The position numbers and the translations under genes were made by a program. The notes under the pieces are model-generated. The model saw nothing but the letters and a program-made list of their open reading frames with translations, had not been told where the DNA came from and made no database searches. 64,000 bases of DNA from a virus: the UHGV virus genome UHGV-0036582, one strand, 5' to 3'. Of this stretch, positions 9,153-44,068 are shown one piece after another. The first letter of the stretch is position 1. The number at the start of each line of letters is the position of its first letter.

Positions 9153-9207
9153 CCTGCTTCTGTATATATAAATAATAAGTAACTTATTAAATATATACGG
9201 AAGCAGG
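9153..9207. repeat. 55-bp near-perfect palindromic element, copy 1
   Basis: CCTGCTTCTGTATATATAAATAATAAGTAACTTATTAAATATATACGGAAGCAGG, nested inside outer arms GGTCTGGG 9131-9138 / CCCAGACC 9222-9229; second copy at 40508-40562. Confidence 0.7.
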
Positions 9208-37217: not shown

Positions 37218-37616
37218 ATGCATACTGCACTTAACGCATCTCGTTCTATTCAGACGATAAGAGACTGTACCAAGATGATCGCATCGGTTCCGTTGCGGCA
37301 TTGGAATGACTCGCTCCAAATTCGTGAAATGAACAAACCGGGTATGCTTAAGGATCAGCGTTTCATCGTTAACCTTAAAAGTGACGTTGAAGAAGGCAAG
37401 TTTACCATCAAATTGTTTGCAGAAATGATGGTGCTCAACAATCGGTTACGTTTTCTTGTTAAGCCAGAAAAACAGTTTCCCGATGTTGTGCGTTGTGAAC
37501 AGGATGCTTTCTATGAGATTGAAAGCAAAATAGCTAAATTTATCAAAGATAAATACCGCGTAGATGTTAAAATAGCGAAACTGGATTCATCTACGGATAT
37601 GCGGCTTGCTAACTAA
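37218..37616 (+). CDS. hypothetical protein
   Basis: 132-aa ORF. Confidence 0.4.
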   Translation: MHTALNASRSIQTIRDCTKMIASVPLRHWNDSLQIREMNKPGMLKDQRFIVNLKSDVEEGKFTIKLFAEMMVLNNRLRFLVKPEKQFPDVVRCEQDAFYEIESKIAKFIKDKYRVDVKIAKLDSSTDMRLAN

Positions 37617-38393
37617 ATGTCACCATCATTCATAGCAGAGTATTCAAAAGTACTGTCTGGTTTCCCTGAATGTGAAGCAAGAGAGAAAATCAGAGTTGGC
37701 TACATGGTTAACTCTGATTTTTCTGTTTTACGGCTCACAGAGTGGTCCTTGATCGGGTCTAATTATGATTACTGTTTGACAGTGTCATTTGTAGGCGACC
37801 CTGATGCAGATTGGCTTCAAGAACATGCAATGGATCTTGACGAGCAGGGGTATTCAGAAGCAGAGATAGTTCATAGTGTTCGTGAATTAGTTGGTGATGA
37901 GCAAGAAGATGATGACGGCATTCAGATCGCCAGGTTCGTCTACAAACGATTCCAGTTTCGCTCACAAAAAGGCTCTCATCTTGGGGTCCAGATTAAAGGG
38001 GCATTTGTAACCCCTTCAAAGGAACAAAAGGGACTTGCTAGAAGAGTTTACAATTTCCTTCTCAATTGGCATGACCATGTGGTATGTGATGACCATCAGA
38101 CGGTTTACGGTGCCAGAATTTGGGCGGTCGGTATGCTTCTGGTCGGGCGTGTCCAAATCTATGACAATTTAAACAAAGAATTTATAGATGTCCTTGTTGA
38201 AGGTGGTATTGGGCAGAATGGCGTCAAACCGTGGGACGCGCTGCTATTGAGCAGCGAGGCCCAGTTACGTCACTGGAACCCTATGGCCGTCAGCATAGAC
38301 CCATCTAGTCAGATTCTCGCCATCATCTCCAAAGAAGACCGTCACATTGAAGTGGGCGTTACAACTTTTGACGCCAGGTCTACCAACCATTAA
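37617..38393 (+). CDS. hypothetical protein
   Basis: 258-aa ORF followed by strong terminator. Confidence 0.45.
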   Translation: MSPSFIAEYSKVLSGFPECEAREKIRVGYMVNSDFSVLRLTEWSLIGSNYDYCLTVSFVGDPDADWLQEHAMDLDEQGYSEAEIVHSVRELVGDEQEDDDGIQIARFVYKRFQFRSQKGSHLGVQIKGAFVTPSKEQKGLARRVYNFLLNWHDHVVCDDHQTVYGARIWAVGMLLVGRVQIYDNLNKEFIDVLVEGGIGQNGVKPWDALLLSSEAQLRHWNPMAVSIDPSSQILAIISKEDRHIEVGVTTFDARSTNH

Positions 38394-38548: not shown

Positions 38549-39217
38549 ATGACCAAGATCTTTGTGGTTGGCGGCACAAAGGGCGGGCCTGGCAAATCCA
38601 CCGTTGCCCAGCAAATTGCCGTTTGCCTGAAAGTCAAAAAGAAGAAGAAGGTTTATATCACTGATATAGATATTCAGCGCACGACAACAAGCTGGTGTGA
38701 AGACCGTCGACAGAACGAAGACCTTGAGCTGATTCCTTTTGCATACGTTCAGGATGACATCATTAAGCACCTAAAATCGCTTCAGGGTAGAGCTGAGTTT
38801 GTAGTGGTAGATGCTGGTGGCTTTGACTCCGAAATTCAGCGACAAGCGATGCTGATGGCCGACGTTATCATTATCCCGCTGCGTCCTAAGCGTCGTGATT
38901 TGAAATCTTTACGTGACATCGATCCTATTATCGACAATGTTCGTAATGTAAACGATAAAGTGAAGGTCCGCGCGGTCATGAACCAGTGCCCGGCTTTGCC
39001 ATCACAAGTGTCTCGCATTTTGGCGGCTAAAGAGATTGTCGAGACGTTTGGCATCGAGTCTGCGCCAGTCAATTTATATAACCGCAACGTCTATGATGAT
39101 GCGGAAGAGTCTGGTCGTTCTATCTTTGAAATGACCGGTAGCGAGCGCGACAAAAAGGCGGAAGCCGAGTTTGAAGAATTTGTAGATTATCTGTTGAGTC
39201 TGGAGGAAGAAGAATAA
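38549..39217 (+). CDS. parA: ParA-family partition ATPase
   Basis: Deviant Walker A GGTKGGPGKST, Walker B VVVDAGG; 222 aa (small type Ib ParA size). Confidence 0.8.
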   Translation: MTKIFVVGGTKGGPGKSTVAQQIAVCLKVKKKKKVYITDIDIQRTTTSWCEDRRQNEDLELIPFAYVQDDIIKHLKSLQGRAEFVVVDAGGFDSEIQRQAMLMADVIIIPLRPKRRDLKSLRDIDPIIDNVRNVNDKVKVRAVMNQCPALPSQVSRILAAKEIVETFGIESAPVNLYNRNVYDDAEESGRSIFEMTGSERDKKAEAEFEEFVDYLLSLEEEE

Positions 39218-39576
39218 TGTCCATGAAAATGGGTGACCTAGCAAAGCGCAAAGAGTCTGATGCACCGGCTAAGAACACAACTCCTTTGCGCCAACCAGTC
39301 AGACCACAGGGACGCCCGACTCGTGGCAAAGAGAAAATTAAAAGCCGCACAATGTCACTGGAGGACGAATACTTCGAACTGCTGGAGATGATGAAGTTCA
39401 TCCCTCGCTTCGAGAAGTTCACTCGTTCTGACGTGATTCGAGCAGCCATTTTCCATCTGGCAGAGAAGTCACCGCAGGAAATCGAGGACATCGTGAAATT
39501 GAATGAGGCGATCACCGCTGCCGATGTCACGATGCGTACCGATGAAATCAAACGAGAGTTGATGAAGAAAGGTTAA
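39217..39576 (+). CDS. small partition DNA-binding partner (ParG/ribbon-helix-helix-like)
   Basis: 119 aa, basic N-terminal tail, translationally coupled to parA (stop/start overlap). Confidence 0.45.
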   Translation: MSMKMGDLAKRKESDAPAKNTTPLRQPVRPQGRPTRGKEKIKSRTMSLEDEYFELLEMMKFIPRFEKFTRSDVIRAAIFHLAEKSPQEIEDIVKLNEAITAADVTMRTDEIKRELMKKG

Positions 39577-39580
39577 AAAT

Positions 39581-39613
39581 CATGCATTGGCGTAATGTAC
39601 GCGCCAATGCATG
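39581..39613. repeat. perfect 12-bp inverted repeat CATGCATTGGCG / CGCCAATGCATG with 9-nt loop
   Basis: Between convergent par operon and GIY-YIG gene; no T-tract; possible factor-dependent terminator or centromere-like site. Confidence 0.5.
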
Positions 39614-39628
39614 AGTACAATGTCAGTT

Positions 39629-40396
39629 TTATGCCGCGCTAACACTATGTTCAGTCCTAACCACTCCAACCTTCACAAAAGGGCTACCGTAGCTTGGTGG
39701 CTTCTTGATTAATTTGCCAACATACAGTTTTCTAATATGCTCATCGGCTATTCTGCCAACAAATTCATAACGTTTTGTGTCGGGGCCAAGAGCTATATCC
39801 CTTGTAAAGTACTGCTGAGAACCGGCTTTGACCCAGCATTCAATCTGATAAACTTCCATTATCAGCCCACCATATGTAGCGTAGGCATATTTGAGATTCT
39901 CGTCTCTTGGAACCTTTGCCCATACGCCACGCGTAGCTTCATATAATGCCAGAGCGGACATTCCTGACTTGTAGGTGCTGTTTAGCAGGAAGGCAAGACC
40001 GGCGTGCTCAGGAGCAATTTCAGTTTCCTCTTGCAGCACTAAGTGATGGTAGGCGTCCAGTGATATTCTGCCCATCATGGAACCACTTCCTCGTACCTTA
40101 TTCGTAAGCTCTCCGACCCCCATAAGGTCGATGCATGTCGCCTCAACAAGTTTGGCTGTGGTTTCATCCATACCATGACGAAGTATATCTATGCCTAATT
40201 TTTTATTAGCCAAAAGTTCTTTGATCCGCATGGATTTGGGAGAGTCATCGGGATACTTGATGTGATCGAGACAACGAGTCGATTTGCCTTTTCCTATGTA
40301 AAACGGTCTTTTCATCTTGTCTTCTGTATCATAGAGACAGTAAACATAGTATTTAGCCTTATCCAATGATCTCGCGTATACCGATAAATCGTCCAT
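39629..40396 (-). CDS. GIY-YIG family endonuclease (homing-endonuclease-like)
   Basis: N-terminus YVYCLYD-(10 aa)-FYIGKGKSTRCLDH matches GIY...YIG...R..H spacing. Confidence 0.6.
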   Translation of the reverse strand: MDDLSVYARSLDKAKYYVYCLYDTEDKMKRPFYIGKGKSTRCLDHIKYPDDSPKSMRIKELLANKKLGIDILRHGMDETTAKLVEATCIDLMGVGELTNKVRGSGSMMGRISLDAYHHLVLQEETEIAPEHAGLAFLLNSTYKSGMSALALYEATRGVWAKVPRDENLKYAYATYGGLIMEVYQIECWVKAGSQQYFTRDIALGPDTKRYEFVGRIADEHIRKLYVGKLIKKPPSYGSPFVKVGVVRTEHSVSAA

Positions 40397-40507
40397 TATT
40401 GCATCTCTTAGCTACTGACTAATGCGTTCTATTTTACACATAAGTTTTTAATCAATTTAACAGGCTCAAAGTGTAGAGCTTCTGGGCGTCTAAGACGACA
40501 AGTTATG

Positions 40508-40562
40508 CCTGCTTCTGTATATATTTAATAAGTTACTTATTATTTATATATACAGAAGCAGG
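40508..40562. repeat. 55-bp near-perfect palindromic element, copy 2 (inverted relative to copy 1)
   Basis: Reverse complement matches 9153-9207 at 54 of 55 positions. Confidence 0.7.
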
Positions 40563-40671: not shown

Positions 40672-41421
40672 GTGAGCCACATGAGCCAAATCTTTTTCGA
40701 TACCATTGACAACGACCAGTACGACTTCATGACAGAGTGGAATACCGCTGTTATGGACAAGTGGGTCGCTGAAAACATTGGTTTGTCGCGCTGCAAAGAC
40801 GAGGCTGAACTCTTCGAGACGAAGTGGTTTGATTACCGCGATATGCATCCTCTCATGGCCACCTGTCTTTTTACGGAGGCATACAAACGTCAGTACTCAA
40901 ATATCATGCTGACGCACGGTCGCGAACACTTTGAAACAGCTCCGTTCACCACCGGGTTAAAACGCCTGCCTTATCAGGAGTTGTCGACTGCCAATAAAAC
41001 GTCTCTATGGAAAGCACGCCAGTTTGCTGACCGCTATTGCTGCTCATACGACTACTTTATCTCCACCGTTCTTTCCGCAGCTGCACGACGTCTGTGGGAC
41101 AAGCTGCCGCGTCCGCAGCATTTATGGCAGCCAGAACTGATTGAGATATTTGAAGAGAAATTAGCCAGACGCGCAATAACCCGTCTGGATGACTCTCTGG
41201 TTAGCTTTAAGCATATGGGAGACATGCAGTTCAACCCGATTCAGGAAAGCTATTTTGAGTGGATTCTGGAGCGTTTGCGCACCATCCCTCGCAGCAAGCG
41301 CATACGCGCAATTTTCTCCGCTATCTGGCTAATGGAAATCGTTCCAGAGCGCCTTATTTCCGCCCACTTTCCAGAAGAACTGGAAGAAGCACGGCGGTTT
41401 ATTGATCCCCTATCTAATTAA
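40672..41421 (+). CDS. hypothetical protein upstream of replicative helicase
   Basis: 249-aa ORF, first gene of rightward replication operon; no motif identified. Confidence 0.4.
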   Translation: MSHMSQIFFDTIDNDQYDFMTEWNTAVMDKWVAENIGLSRCKDEAELFETKWFDYRDMHPLMATCLFTEAYKRQYSNIMLTHGREHFETAPFTTGLKRLPYQELSTANKTSLWKARQFADRYCCSYDYFISTVLSAAARRLWDKLPRPQHLWQPELIEIFEEKLARRAITRLDDSLVSFKHMGDMQFNPIQESYFEWILERLRTIPRSKRIRAIFSAIWLMEIVPERLISAHFPEELEEARRFIDPLSN

Positions 41422-41464: not shown

Positions 41465-42805
41465 ATGACCGAACTTTGCCATACAGGACGCGGGCTGTCC
41501 GAAGAGTTTGATGAAGATTTTCAGAACAGATTGACGGCCTATTTTTGTCGTGATCACGAGTTTCTTACTCGTGCTGGAGATCTGGTTGTACCTAGCCAAT
41601 TTGCCAATGCGGCCAATGCCATATTGGTTAATATGGTTTCGGGCTATTACCGTATGTACAAGAGCGCGCCCTCTTCATCTGCGATTCTGGATATGCTTAA
41701 GCGTGCGAAACGCGATAAGACTATCCGTGAGGAACTATTCGCCGATGTTGTTGCTGCGTTTAAGCGCATCCTTGCAGAAAAATTGTCTGATACCTCGTAC
41801 ATGGTTGACCAGGTATCAACCTTCGCAAAAAGCGTAGCGTTTGATGATGCTCTGATTAAGGCTGCTGAACTGAAAGAGAAGGGCGACTTTCAGGGGGCGA
41901 TGGCAATCATGGCCAAGGTTCAGCAGATTGGATCGAACGAAGCGACCGGAATCTATGACTACTACACCTCCGCAAGTGAGCGATTGAAAGCGCGTGAATA
42001 TGAGGCTTCAGAGGAGTATGTGCCAAACAGCATTACAACTGGACTCCCTCTGCTCGATAGGTTGCTGTACCAAAAAGGCTGGGCGAAGCGTGAAATGGTG
42101 CTCTTCATGGGGTTCGCTAAATCCGGTAAATCGACCGCAATGGGTGAGTTTTCCATAAACGCAACGCTTGCTGGCTACAATGTTCTGTATCTCTCGCTGG
42201 AGGTTCACACCAACATTTTGTCCGACCGCTTTGATGCAAGATTGTCGGAGACGGAAATGTCCAAGCTGGTGGAACGGCGCGATGAAGTTCATCGTAAGTT
42301 GGCAGAGTTGGGAGCCACTAAGGGGATTGGTAGTTTGTGGGTTGTTGAGCGTCCGTCAGGAAGTATGTCACCGGCAGATCTGGACCGTATGCTTAACAGT
42401 ATGAAAGCCAATGGCATGGTGCCTGACATGGTTGTTGTCGACTACGCAGATTTGATGCGTGCCAGTTATGACCTTCGTGATGATCGCGCCAATATTCGTA
42501 GTATCTACACCGATTTACGTGCTCTTTATGACAAGCATAACGTTGCTGGGATCACGGCATCGCAGACAAACCGTGAAGGTGGCGCGTCAGAAGTTGCCAC
42601 AATGATGCACGCCGCCGATAACATCGAAAAAGTACGTATTGCTGACCTGGTAATAACGATCAACAAAACCGAAGAAGAAGAAGCGAAAGGAGAGGCTCGT
42701 CTCTACTTTGCTGGTTCACGTAACCAGCAGGGTGGGATCAGCATTCGCGTTAAACAAAACCTCGAACAAATGCGTTTCATTGAGCGAATCTTAGACGTTA
42801 CCTAA
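41465..42805 (+). CDS. dnaB: DnaB-like replicative DNA helicase
   Basis: Walker A GFAKSGKST, Walker B MVVVDYADLM, ITASQTNREG arginine-finger region; N-terminal helical domain. Confidence 0.8.
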   Translation: MTELCHTGRGLSEEFDEDFQNRLTAYFCRDHEFLTRAGDLVVPSQFANAANAILVNMVSGYYRMYKSAPSSSAILDMLKRAKRDKTIREELFADVVAAFKRILAEKLSDTSYMVDQVSTFAKSVAFDDALIKAAELKEKGDFQGAMAIMAKVQQIGSNEATGIYDYYTSASERLKAREYEASEEYVPNSITTGLPLLDRLLYQKGWAKREMVLFMGFAKSGKSTAMGEFSINATLAGYNVLYLSLEVHTNILSDRFDARLSETEMSKLVERRDEVHRKLAELGATKGIGSLWVVERPSGSMSPADLDRMLNSMKANGMVPDMVVVDYADLMRASYDLRDDRANIRSIYTDLRALYDKHNVAGITASQTNREGGASEVATMMHAADNIEKVRIADLVITINKTEEEEAKGEARLYFAGSRNQQGGISIRVKQNLEQMRFIERILDVT

Positions 42806-42814
42806 AAAATAAGC

Positions 42815-44068
42815 GTGGAGAACACCTCCACGCTTGATTCATTTGTGAAACAACTTTTCTTTTGCCAAACCACAAAAGAAAAACACATGAGCCTTTATGT
42901 TATATCAACATTTAGGTTGGTCACAATATTGCCTGTTAAAAGTGGAATTATCGTGAGCGAGCTGAAAGAGCTAATTGCCGAATTAGATTTTGAACAATGG
43001 TTGGATACTGAAGGTATCGTTTATCGACGTGGAGGCGTGAGTGCTCGCGGTCGTGAAGTGAATATCAAGGAATGTCCGGTATGCGGCAGCTCCAACTGGA
43101 AGGTATATTTCAATCTGACCAGTGGCGTCGGCAAATGCTTTGCTGGTGATCATCCCGAAGAGATTCAGTTCAATAAGCTGGTCTTCCTCAAGCACTACAG
43201 CGGCAAATCACGACGACAGTTCGAGGAATATGTGCAGAACGCTCTTCTTTCCCAGGGGTGGGCACCAAAGAAAGAAGAGATAGTGCTTGCAAGCACAGTC
43301 GAGTTAGAGGGACCAGTTGCCCTCCCTCGTCATTACGAACTTCCTATAGATGGCCGTCTTCCAGACTATCTGGTTGAACGAAACATATCGCCTGAAATGG
43401 CAAAGTATTTTGACCTACGATACTGCGTCGAAGGCAAGCACGCTTATGTAGATCCGTATACAGATCAGGTAAAAGGACAGATATTCGATATGCGAATACT
43501 CATACCGGTTTACGATCTGGATGGGGTAATGAAGACATTTCAGGGACGAGACATTACCGGTACAGCAGAACGTCGCTACCTCTTTCCTATGCAGCTTCCA
43601 GCTTCAGGTAAGTTTCTCTACAACGGCCATAATGCAGTCGGCAAACAGACGGTAGTTGTCTGTGAGGGGGCGTTCGATGTTATGGGGGTCAAACGAGCTA
43701 TTTTTGACGAAGAAACATTACGTGATTACGTGGAACCAATAGGAACGTTCGGGATGCATCTATCTGGCAACACCACTCAGGATGCAGAAGATCAGCTGGG
43801 CGCGTTCCTGACGCTCAAGGCGCGTGGATTACGTAATGTGATCATGATGTGGGATAGTGAAAAGCAAGCTATACGCAACACTATGGCCGCAGCTAGGCGA
43901 CTCACAAGTATTGGCCTTAATGTCAAAGTTGCGTGTTTGGGCGAGGAAGGACTCGACCCCGGCGATGCGACACCGGGGCAGATTATCAAAGCCTACTATT
44001 GCGCAAAACCTTATTCACGACAGCTTGAACTCTTAAGCAAGGTGAAAGGCATTGCAGCACTAGTTTGA
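42815..44068 (+). CDS. DNA primase (zinc ribbon + TOPRIM)
   Basis: CPVCGSSNW...GKCFAGDHP zinc ribbon; TOPRIM-like VVVCEGAFDVMGV and MMWDSE; start uncertain. Confidence 0.7.
   Translation: MENTSTLDSFVKQLFFCQTTKEKHMSLYVISTFRLVTILPVKSGIIVSELKELIAELDFEQWLDTEGIVYRRGGVSARGREVNIKECPVCGSSNWKVYFNLTSGVGKCFAGDHPEEIQFNKLVFLKHYSGKSRRQFEEYVQNALLSQGWAPKKEEIVLASTVELEGPVALPRHYELPIDGRLPDYLVERNISPEMAKYFDLRYCVEGKHAYVDPYTDQVKGQIFDMRILIPVYDLDGVMKTFQGRDITGTAERRYLFPMQLPASGKFLYNGHNAVGKQTVVVCEGAFDVMGVKRAIFDEETLRDYVEPIGTFGMHLSGNTTQDAEDQLGAFLTLKARGLRNVIMMWDSEKQAIRNTMAAARRLTSIGLNVKVACLGEEGLDPGDATPGQIIKAYYCAKPYSRQLELLSKVKGIAALV

Follow-up and report, generated by a model that had tools for sequence, protein, structure and literature searches.

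The GIY-YIG nuclease gene at positions 39629-40396 of the window, the 64,000-nucleotide stretch of UHGV virus genome UHGV-0036582 that was analysed, most likely encodes a CMoRE-family nuclease that acts against the modified DNA of phages such as T4 and is carried as swappable cargo in a defence hotspot of a phage-plasmid. The window represents an E. coli phage-plasmid of the SSU5-like type; over the nuclease region it shares 98% identity with phage CMS-2020a and with PhiR41_1. The family to which the protein belongs, as a divergent member, is known and has recently been solved. The features of the region are as follows.

38549-39217, plus strand: ParA gene, named from annotated relatives.
39217-39576, plus strand: parB-like gene of 119 amino acids (ORF list), behind ParA in all relatives.
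39575-40507 (right edge ~40500), no strand assigned: mobile cassette of ~0.93 kb, delimited by homology breaks.
39575-39614, minus strand: intrinsic terminator, stem 39580-39592 / 39602-39614.
39629-40396, minus strand: GIY-YIG nuclease gene (ORF list; ATG start, 255 amino acids).
39656-40075, minus strand: C-terminal domain, residues 108-247, homologous to the modification-sensing domain of CMoRE.
40085-40396, minus strand: N-terminal GIY-YIG domain with Y33-I-G, R41, H45, E85 and N99.
40397-40497, minus strand: upstream region of the nuclease gene, cassette-borne (sequence reading).
40508-40562, no strand assigned: 55-bp palindrome with 17-nt perfect outer arms (inverted-repeat search).
40672-41421, plus strand: gene for a protein of 249 amino acids (orf249), flanking the nuclease gene on the palindrome side.
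41465-42805, plus strand: DnaB-like helicase, named from annotated relatives.
42815-44068, plus strand: primase, named from annotated relatives.

The nuclease gene lies on the minus strand, all of its neighbours being on the plus strand. Its coordinates and orientation are exactly those given by the sequence-only reading, which had described a free-standing GIY-YIG nuclease gene between partition and replication modules. That description is borne out by Pfam, where the 255-residue protein matched LEM-3_GIY-YIG above the gathering score, and by a phmmer search against the PDB, in which only CMoRE was matched (9u7u_A/9u75_A, E 2e-15, residues 12-230). The protein also matched PHROG 5356 (E 1e-99), a PHROG of unknown function, and a search against NCBIfam gave no match; RefSeq labels it only as a 'LEM-3-like GIY-YIG domain-containing protein'. 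The GIY-YIG, R and H elements proposed earlier are present, but the register 'GIY-(10 aa)-YIG', read through C20-L-Y22, is wrong: position 22 is not conserved, being C or Y among homologues, and the true tyrosines are Y17 and Y19, the latter followed after 13 residues by Y33-I-G. Alignment of 30 homologues shows Y17, Y19, Y33-I-G, R41, H45, E85 and N99 to be invariant.

Vassallo et al. 2022 (PMC9519451) discovered PD-T4-3, which shows activity in its natural E. coli host (PMC12409345) and has since been renamed CMoRE and studied in detail (Liu et al., Nat Commun 2026, PMC12923530). CMoRE is a single-protein type IV restriction endonuclease that works as a tetramer, binds and degrades 5hmC and 5ghmC DNA while sparing C and 5mC DNA, cleaves in the pattern CN11/N9G with almost no sequence specificity, and shields E. 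coli ~10^5-fold from T2, T4 and T6; its solved structures are PDB 9U75 and 9U7U (PMC12923530). Several searches place the window's protein in this family. The PADLOC PD-T4-3 model was matched with E 1.3e-23 over residues 11-231 (256-position model), the top four Foldseek matches were CMoRE structures at probability 1.00, and BLASTP against an E. coli CMoRE-type protein gave 33% identity with E 2e-20. Y17-V-Y19 and Y33-I-G align with Y17, Y19 and Y31 of CMoRE, which form a 'GIYxY-YIG' motif with a third tyrosine, and the catalytic R41 and E85 align as well, together with H45 and N99. By this alignment, Y17, Y19, Y33, R41 and E85 correspond to CMoRE residues whose mutation kills activity.

The C-terminal half of the protein is a modification-sensing domain of the CMoRE fold, with 26% identity to that of CMoRE and with the fold and core residues conserved. 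It has a weak but consistent structural resemblance to PUA-like modified-base readers; the CMoRE authors report no structural homologue of their enzyme (PMC12923530). The single-component organisation of the family is also found here, with one gene in the 0.93-kb cassette and solitary homologues on chromosomes. A partner or immunity gene was considered and rejected, given the single ORF of the cassette and chromosomal neighbours that differ between genera. How far function extends across the family is indicated by PD-T4-3Capno, a 48%-identical homologue from Capnocytophaga, which is a modification-dependent nuclease that cuts T4 DNA and also Mu DNA with carbamoylmethyl-adenine (Rodriguez-Rodriguez et al. 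2025, PMC12366544). Since a member this distant, from another phylum, is also modification-dependent, function holds over large distances in the family, and homologues recovered in functional screens were nearly always modification-dependent anti-T4 defences (PMC12366544).

In one defining feature, the acidic lid, the protein departs from CMoRE. In CMoRE an inserted autoinhibitory loop of 15 residues, four of them consecutive and acidic, is described for 'most' members, and neutralising it leads to activity on ordinary DNA and to toxicity (PMC12923530). In the window's protein the α2-α3 loop is 5 residues shorter and only D50-D51 are acidic, so that 'AATDDDELLS' (DDDD/DDDE) of CMoRE contrasts with 'YPDDSPK' (DD) here; in the alignment, close homologues have acidic residues scattered in the lid loop. 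Neither the short lid of this clade nor the PUA-like resemblance of the sensor appears to be described in the literature searched. The short-lid clade offers a natural test of how CMoRE autoinhibition has been modelled, and may also allow one of an altered modification specificity.

The limits of the cassette were placed by comparison with Cyrano, SSU5 and CP054387, all of which lack the gene. Homology to these ends at 39574, in the stop codon of the parB-like gene, and returns at 40498-40508, the left edge of the palindrome. The terminator sits within the variable cassette and consists of a 13-bp stem and a 9-nt loop followed by UUUUU on the minus strand, the U-tract overlapping the stop codon of the parB-like gene; its RNA fold has an energy of -21.4 kcal/mol (z -5.8 against shuffles). 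The hairpin was missed by a consensus terminator scan because its loop exceeds 8 nt, and was recovered by folding. At the other end, 101-111 nt of upstream sequence lie inside the cassette and contain, by sequence reading, an AAGAG ribosome-binding site 9-13 nt ahead of the ATG, along with an AT-rich stretch bearing a -10-like TAAAAT. A consensus promoter scan of the minus strand returned no sigma-70 site for the nuclease gene; the promoter presumably lies in this cassette-borne region, which travels with the gene at 98.3-98.5% identity in diverged backbones. Terminator, ORF and upstream region with ribosome-binding site thus constitute a self-contained expression cassette.

The sequence-only reading had also noted a 55-bp palindromic element beside the gene. 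The element is real (40508-40562, 111 nt upstream of the nuclease start codon), but the association with the nuclease that had been read into it does not hold, as the palindrome is kept in 22/22 representative alleles examined. Because it is present in every allele, empty ones included, it belongs to the backbone, where it delimits the hotspot on the right, outside the cassette; in empty slots, such as that of the NZ_CP027369 type, it follows the end of the parB-like coding sequence at a distance of 33 nt. A second copy is found 31 kb away, at 9153-9207 of the window. The palindrome was considered as a nuclease target or mobility site and rejected on two grounds, its independence of the cargo and this distant second copy. 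Both window copies of the AT-rich palindrome (CCTGCTTCTGTATATA...TATATACAGAAGCAGG) are intergenic, and to the left of the 9153 copy stands the motif CGGTCTGGNAGCTT, common to the empty-slot alleles of relatives. A loosely conserved TCTGG occurs ~20-25 nt left of the palindrome in most alleles. Possible roles of the palindrome include terminator, operator, centromere-like site and recombination site.

The contents of the slot flanked by the parB-like gene and the palindrome were surveyed in 75 IMG/VR loci, each with the parB-like gene and the 249-residue gene as anchors. The slot is empty in 4/75 and holds the nuclease cassette, always on the minus strand, in 25/75. Other loci carry a 357-residue protein of unknown function (14/75), DUF2971 proteins (19/75; PADLOC candidate PDC-S31, E 3e-41), a KAP NTPase (6/75; PADLOC candidate PDC-S49, E 3e-22), a pair of small membrane proteins alone (5/75), a 225-residue unknown protein (1/75) or, in the same slot of a single locus, PD-T7-5 (1/75; L078:6542-7729, plus strand; PADLOC E 6e-138). 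The arrangement of the DUF2971 proteins varies: they stand by themselves on one strand or the other, or are accompanied by the membrane pair, the 357-residue protein or extra sequence. At least 11 different slot contents were distinguished among the 75 loci. Two of the occupants are experimentally validated defence systems (PD-T4-3-like and PD-T7-5) and two are PADLOC candidates. The slot is therefore most likely a defence hotspot, a label resting on these four cargo families. PADLOC and Pfam returned nothing for the 357- and 225-residue cargos or for the SSU5 membrane pair, and PADLOC nothing for orf249. We found no description of this particular hotspot and its boundaries in the literature searched.

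Several further observations concern the cargos and their surroundings. The 352-357-residue family, alone at 14/75 loci and with DUF2971 at 4 more, is the second commonest occupant (L011:1589-2662, minus strand). Its 346 homologues share 48-99% identity, are all annotated 'hypothetical' and are found also on Salmonella, Pseudomonas, Aeromonas, Vibrio and Shewanella chromosomes, which makes the family a candidate uncharacterised single-gene defence system. In loci L018-L091, most cargos begin with a GC-rich hairpin of their own, differing from cargo to cargo, in the first 30-40 nt past the parB-like stop codon, as if each brought its own terminator or insulator. There is also a second variable slot upstream of parA, occupied at window positions 37218-38393 by two plus-strand ORFs of 132 and 258 residues, neither of which gave a Pfam or PADLOC match. 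The same slot contains a KacT-type GNAT toxin and a DUF1778 antitoxin on the opposite strand in Cyrano, p1585m1_B and p1919D62-2, and two other hypothetical genes in SSU5.

Comparison of diverged backbones indicates recent exchange at the hotspot. Between p1585m1_B and the window the cassette is 98.5% identical, as against 84% for parA, 85% for orf249 and 80% for dnaB. The divergence of p1585m1_B falls from ~16% to a few percent at ~39300, within the parB-like gene; mismatches are almost absent from the cassette, and their density jumps at ~40499, by the palindrome. p1919D62-2 is a mosaic with its breakpoint at the same palindrome-side position. Across the 75-locus survey the cassette was found in at least three backbone lineages, its protein being at least 99% identical where flanking genes are only 80-92% identical, and no other cargo is at least 99% identical in two diverged backbones among the 75 loci. 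A near-identical cassette in diverged backbones implies that it moved recently between them. The parB-like gene is conserved in its 3' half, which constitutes the left homology arm of the hotspot, and homologous recombination through this half and the palindrome would most likely account for both the exchange and the mosaic with no nuclease-driven step.

Among plasmid records, 733 contain the backbone and 124 the whole region including the cassette, and a protein at least 99% identical is encoded in 135. The cassette is present in 107/5,426 complete E. coli genomes (~2%), always on plasmids. The occurrence of PD-T4-3 on SSU5-like elements is already known: according to a 2025 preprint based on DefenseFinder, the phage-plasmids of SSU5 clade J, from E. 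coli and Shigella, include carriers of PD-T4-3 and of PD-T7-5 (10.1101/2025.09.12.675607). One 141-kb IncF conjugative plasmid (NZ_CP062843.1, locus 4001-5615 of L013) carries an SSU5-like fragment between IS3-family elements, comprising the end of parA, the parB-like gene, the nuclease cassette and the palindrome, so that the cassette can also travel by conjugation.

Beyond the phage-plasmids, homologues of 50-79% identity reside on multi-megabase bacterial chromosomes. The Salmonella homologue is solitary and adjoins guaA, that of Providencia lies near mutS, solitary among housekeeping genes, and those of Citrobacter and Enterobacter are solitary between metabolic genes. On one Enterobacter sp. 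chromosome a dCTP-deaminase-like gene (L103:6311-6871, minus strand) adjoins the nuclease homologue; it may be the housekeeping dcd or else a deaminase of the defence type. In species-representative genomes, a scan with strict patterns yielded 22 loci in Enterobacterales, other Gammaproteobacteria, Bacteroidota and Verrucomicrobiota, a result that gives taxonomic breadth and not frequency. At the 50% cluster level the family comprises 632 representatives (E <= 1e-10), mostly of 240-265 residues, matched over their full length and forming a continuum down to ~32% identity. A conserved, solitary gene with such a patchy, phylum-crossing spread behaves as defence genes typically do, unlike homing endonucleases.

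By analogy with the characterised homologues, the C-terminal domain would bind DNA carrying modified bases, most likely the 5-hydroxymethyl- or glucosyl-hydroxymethyl-cytosine of T-even phages, and the N-terminal GIY-YIG domain (Y17/Y19/Y33, R41, E85, N99) would then cut the bound DNA. Unmodified host and phage-plasmid DNA would be left uncut. The lysogen, and hence the phage-plasmid, would outlive attack by phages with hypermodified DNA, and cassettes are most likely swapped by homologous recombination through the two conserved flanks of the slot.

Homing, as proposed by the sequence-only reading, would have the nuclease cut the gene-less slot in related phage-plasmids and repair copy the cassette in. 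The GIY-YIG catalytic fold is that of such enzymes, and the gene does vary among relatives at one fixed site, being present in 25/75 and replaced by an empty slot in 4/75 rather than universally retained. The cassette is moreover 98.5% identical at the DNA level between flanks of 80-92% identity, with sharp edges and in at least three lineages, and it is the only cargo sampled at 99% or above in two diverged backbones. Homing keeps some weight because backbones diverged by 10-20% share a cassette that is ~99% identical. It is nevertheless disfavoured, and we consider it very improbable. In place of a NUMOD, zinc-finger or HTH module (Pfam at E <= 1 found none of these three in the protein), the C-terminal half has the modification sensor of CMoRE, and the characterised relatives require modified cytosine and have nearly no sequence specificity, so that unmodified sister elements would escape cleavage by them. 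Most members of the family are chromosomal and solitary among housekeeping genes, and the family is not confined to phages, introns or inteins. The slot is multi-allelic and accommodates unrelated cargo with no nuclease at all, the palindrome belongs to the backbone, and the cassette replaces a 31-nt spacer of the empty alleles, which is no clean insertion. A combination, in which a short-lid defence nuclease also cuts rival slot alleles and is itself copied in by repair, has in our estimate a slimmer chance still. If true, it would unite a defence gene and a homing-like element in one cassette and would explain why, of the cargos sampled, only this one is ~99% identical across backbones diverged by 10-20%.

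The target of the enzyme, or its control, may differ from that of CMoRE. Given its truncated lid, a nuclease of the same family might recognise another DNA modification, such as the modified adenine of Mu or other hypermodified bases, or might act more broadly on incoming plasmids or competing phage-plasmids instead of being specific to hmC phages. The shortened lid with its two acidic residues, the sensor identity of just 26%, the plasticity of PD-T4-3Capno, which cuts both T4 and Mu DNA (PMC12366544), and the broad sequence continuum of the family are all consistent with this. Against these stand the conserved fold and core residues of the sensor and the nearly uniform modification-dependent anti-T4 activity of homologues from functional screens (PMC12366544). 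Stable plasmid carriage in 107/5,426 complete E. coli genomes further argues against activity on ordinary DNA, and a different target is on balance unlikely. The location of the gene between partition and replication genes, beside the palindrome, could instead point to a role in the phage-plasmid life cycle, either degradation of host DNA in the manner of T4 EndoII or replication or recombination at the palindrome. We give such a role almost no credence: the two-thirds of related elements that lack the gene, among them the four with empty slots, still replicate and partition, the palindrome is retained whatever the cargo, and similarity to EndoII is limited to the generic catalytic core.

The nuclease gene is thus most likely a defence gene through which the phage-plasmid protects its host from T4-like phages. 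This corrects a plausible misannotation, in that a phage GIY-YIG gene is not necessarily a homing endonuclease. As the cassette occurs in ~2% of complete E. coli genomes, it may affect the host range of therapeutic T-even phages. Those occupants of the slot that carry no annotation, notably the widespread 352-357-residue family, are candidate new single-gene defence systems.

Among known systems, the closest are the CMoRE/PD-T4-3 enzymes of E. coli O157:H7 and APEC O1, which share with the window's protein the two-domain, single-gene organisation, a nearly equal length (257 against 255 residues here) and carriage on E. coli mobile elements. The window's protein differs in having only about 26-33% identity to them and a 2-residue insertion between Y19 and Y33, and at this identity the substrate specificity is not simply transferable from the characterised enzymes. 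PD-T4-3Capno, as described by its authors, is likewise a divergent member of the same family; it also cuts Mu DNA with modified adenine, a plasticity that the window's protein may or may not share. Type IV enzymes that combine a PUA-like reader with a nuclease, such as VcaM4I, and McrB with its N-terminal YTH-like domain, are also among the closest systems. The I-TevI and Seg homing endonucleases of T-even phages carry sequence-specific C-terminal DNA-binding modules. The window's protein is without such modules, its family is mainly chromosomal, and its slot accommodates many unrelated cargos. Defence hotspots are a general concept in P2/P4-type elements. The slot described here resembles those of such temperate phages and satellites in its fixed site between conserved core sequences, in the range of its alternative cargos, which are many, mostly single genes, and in part validated defence systems, and in the swapping of cassettes between diverged backbones. 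It differs from the hotspots of temperate phages and satellites (PMC13586616) in belonging to a phage-plasmid, in its location, with the partition operon on one side and the replication module on the other, and in having a 55-bp palindrome as its boundary.
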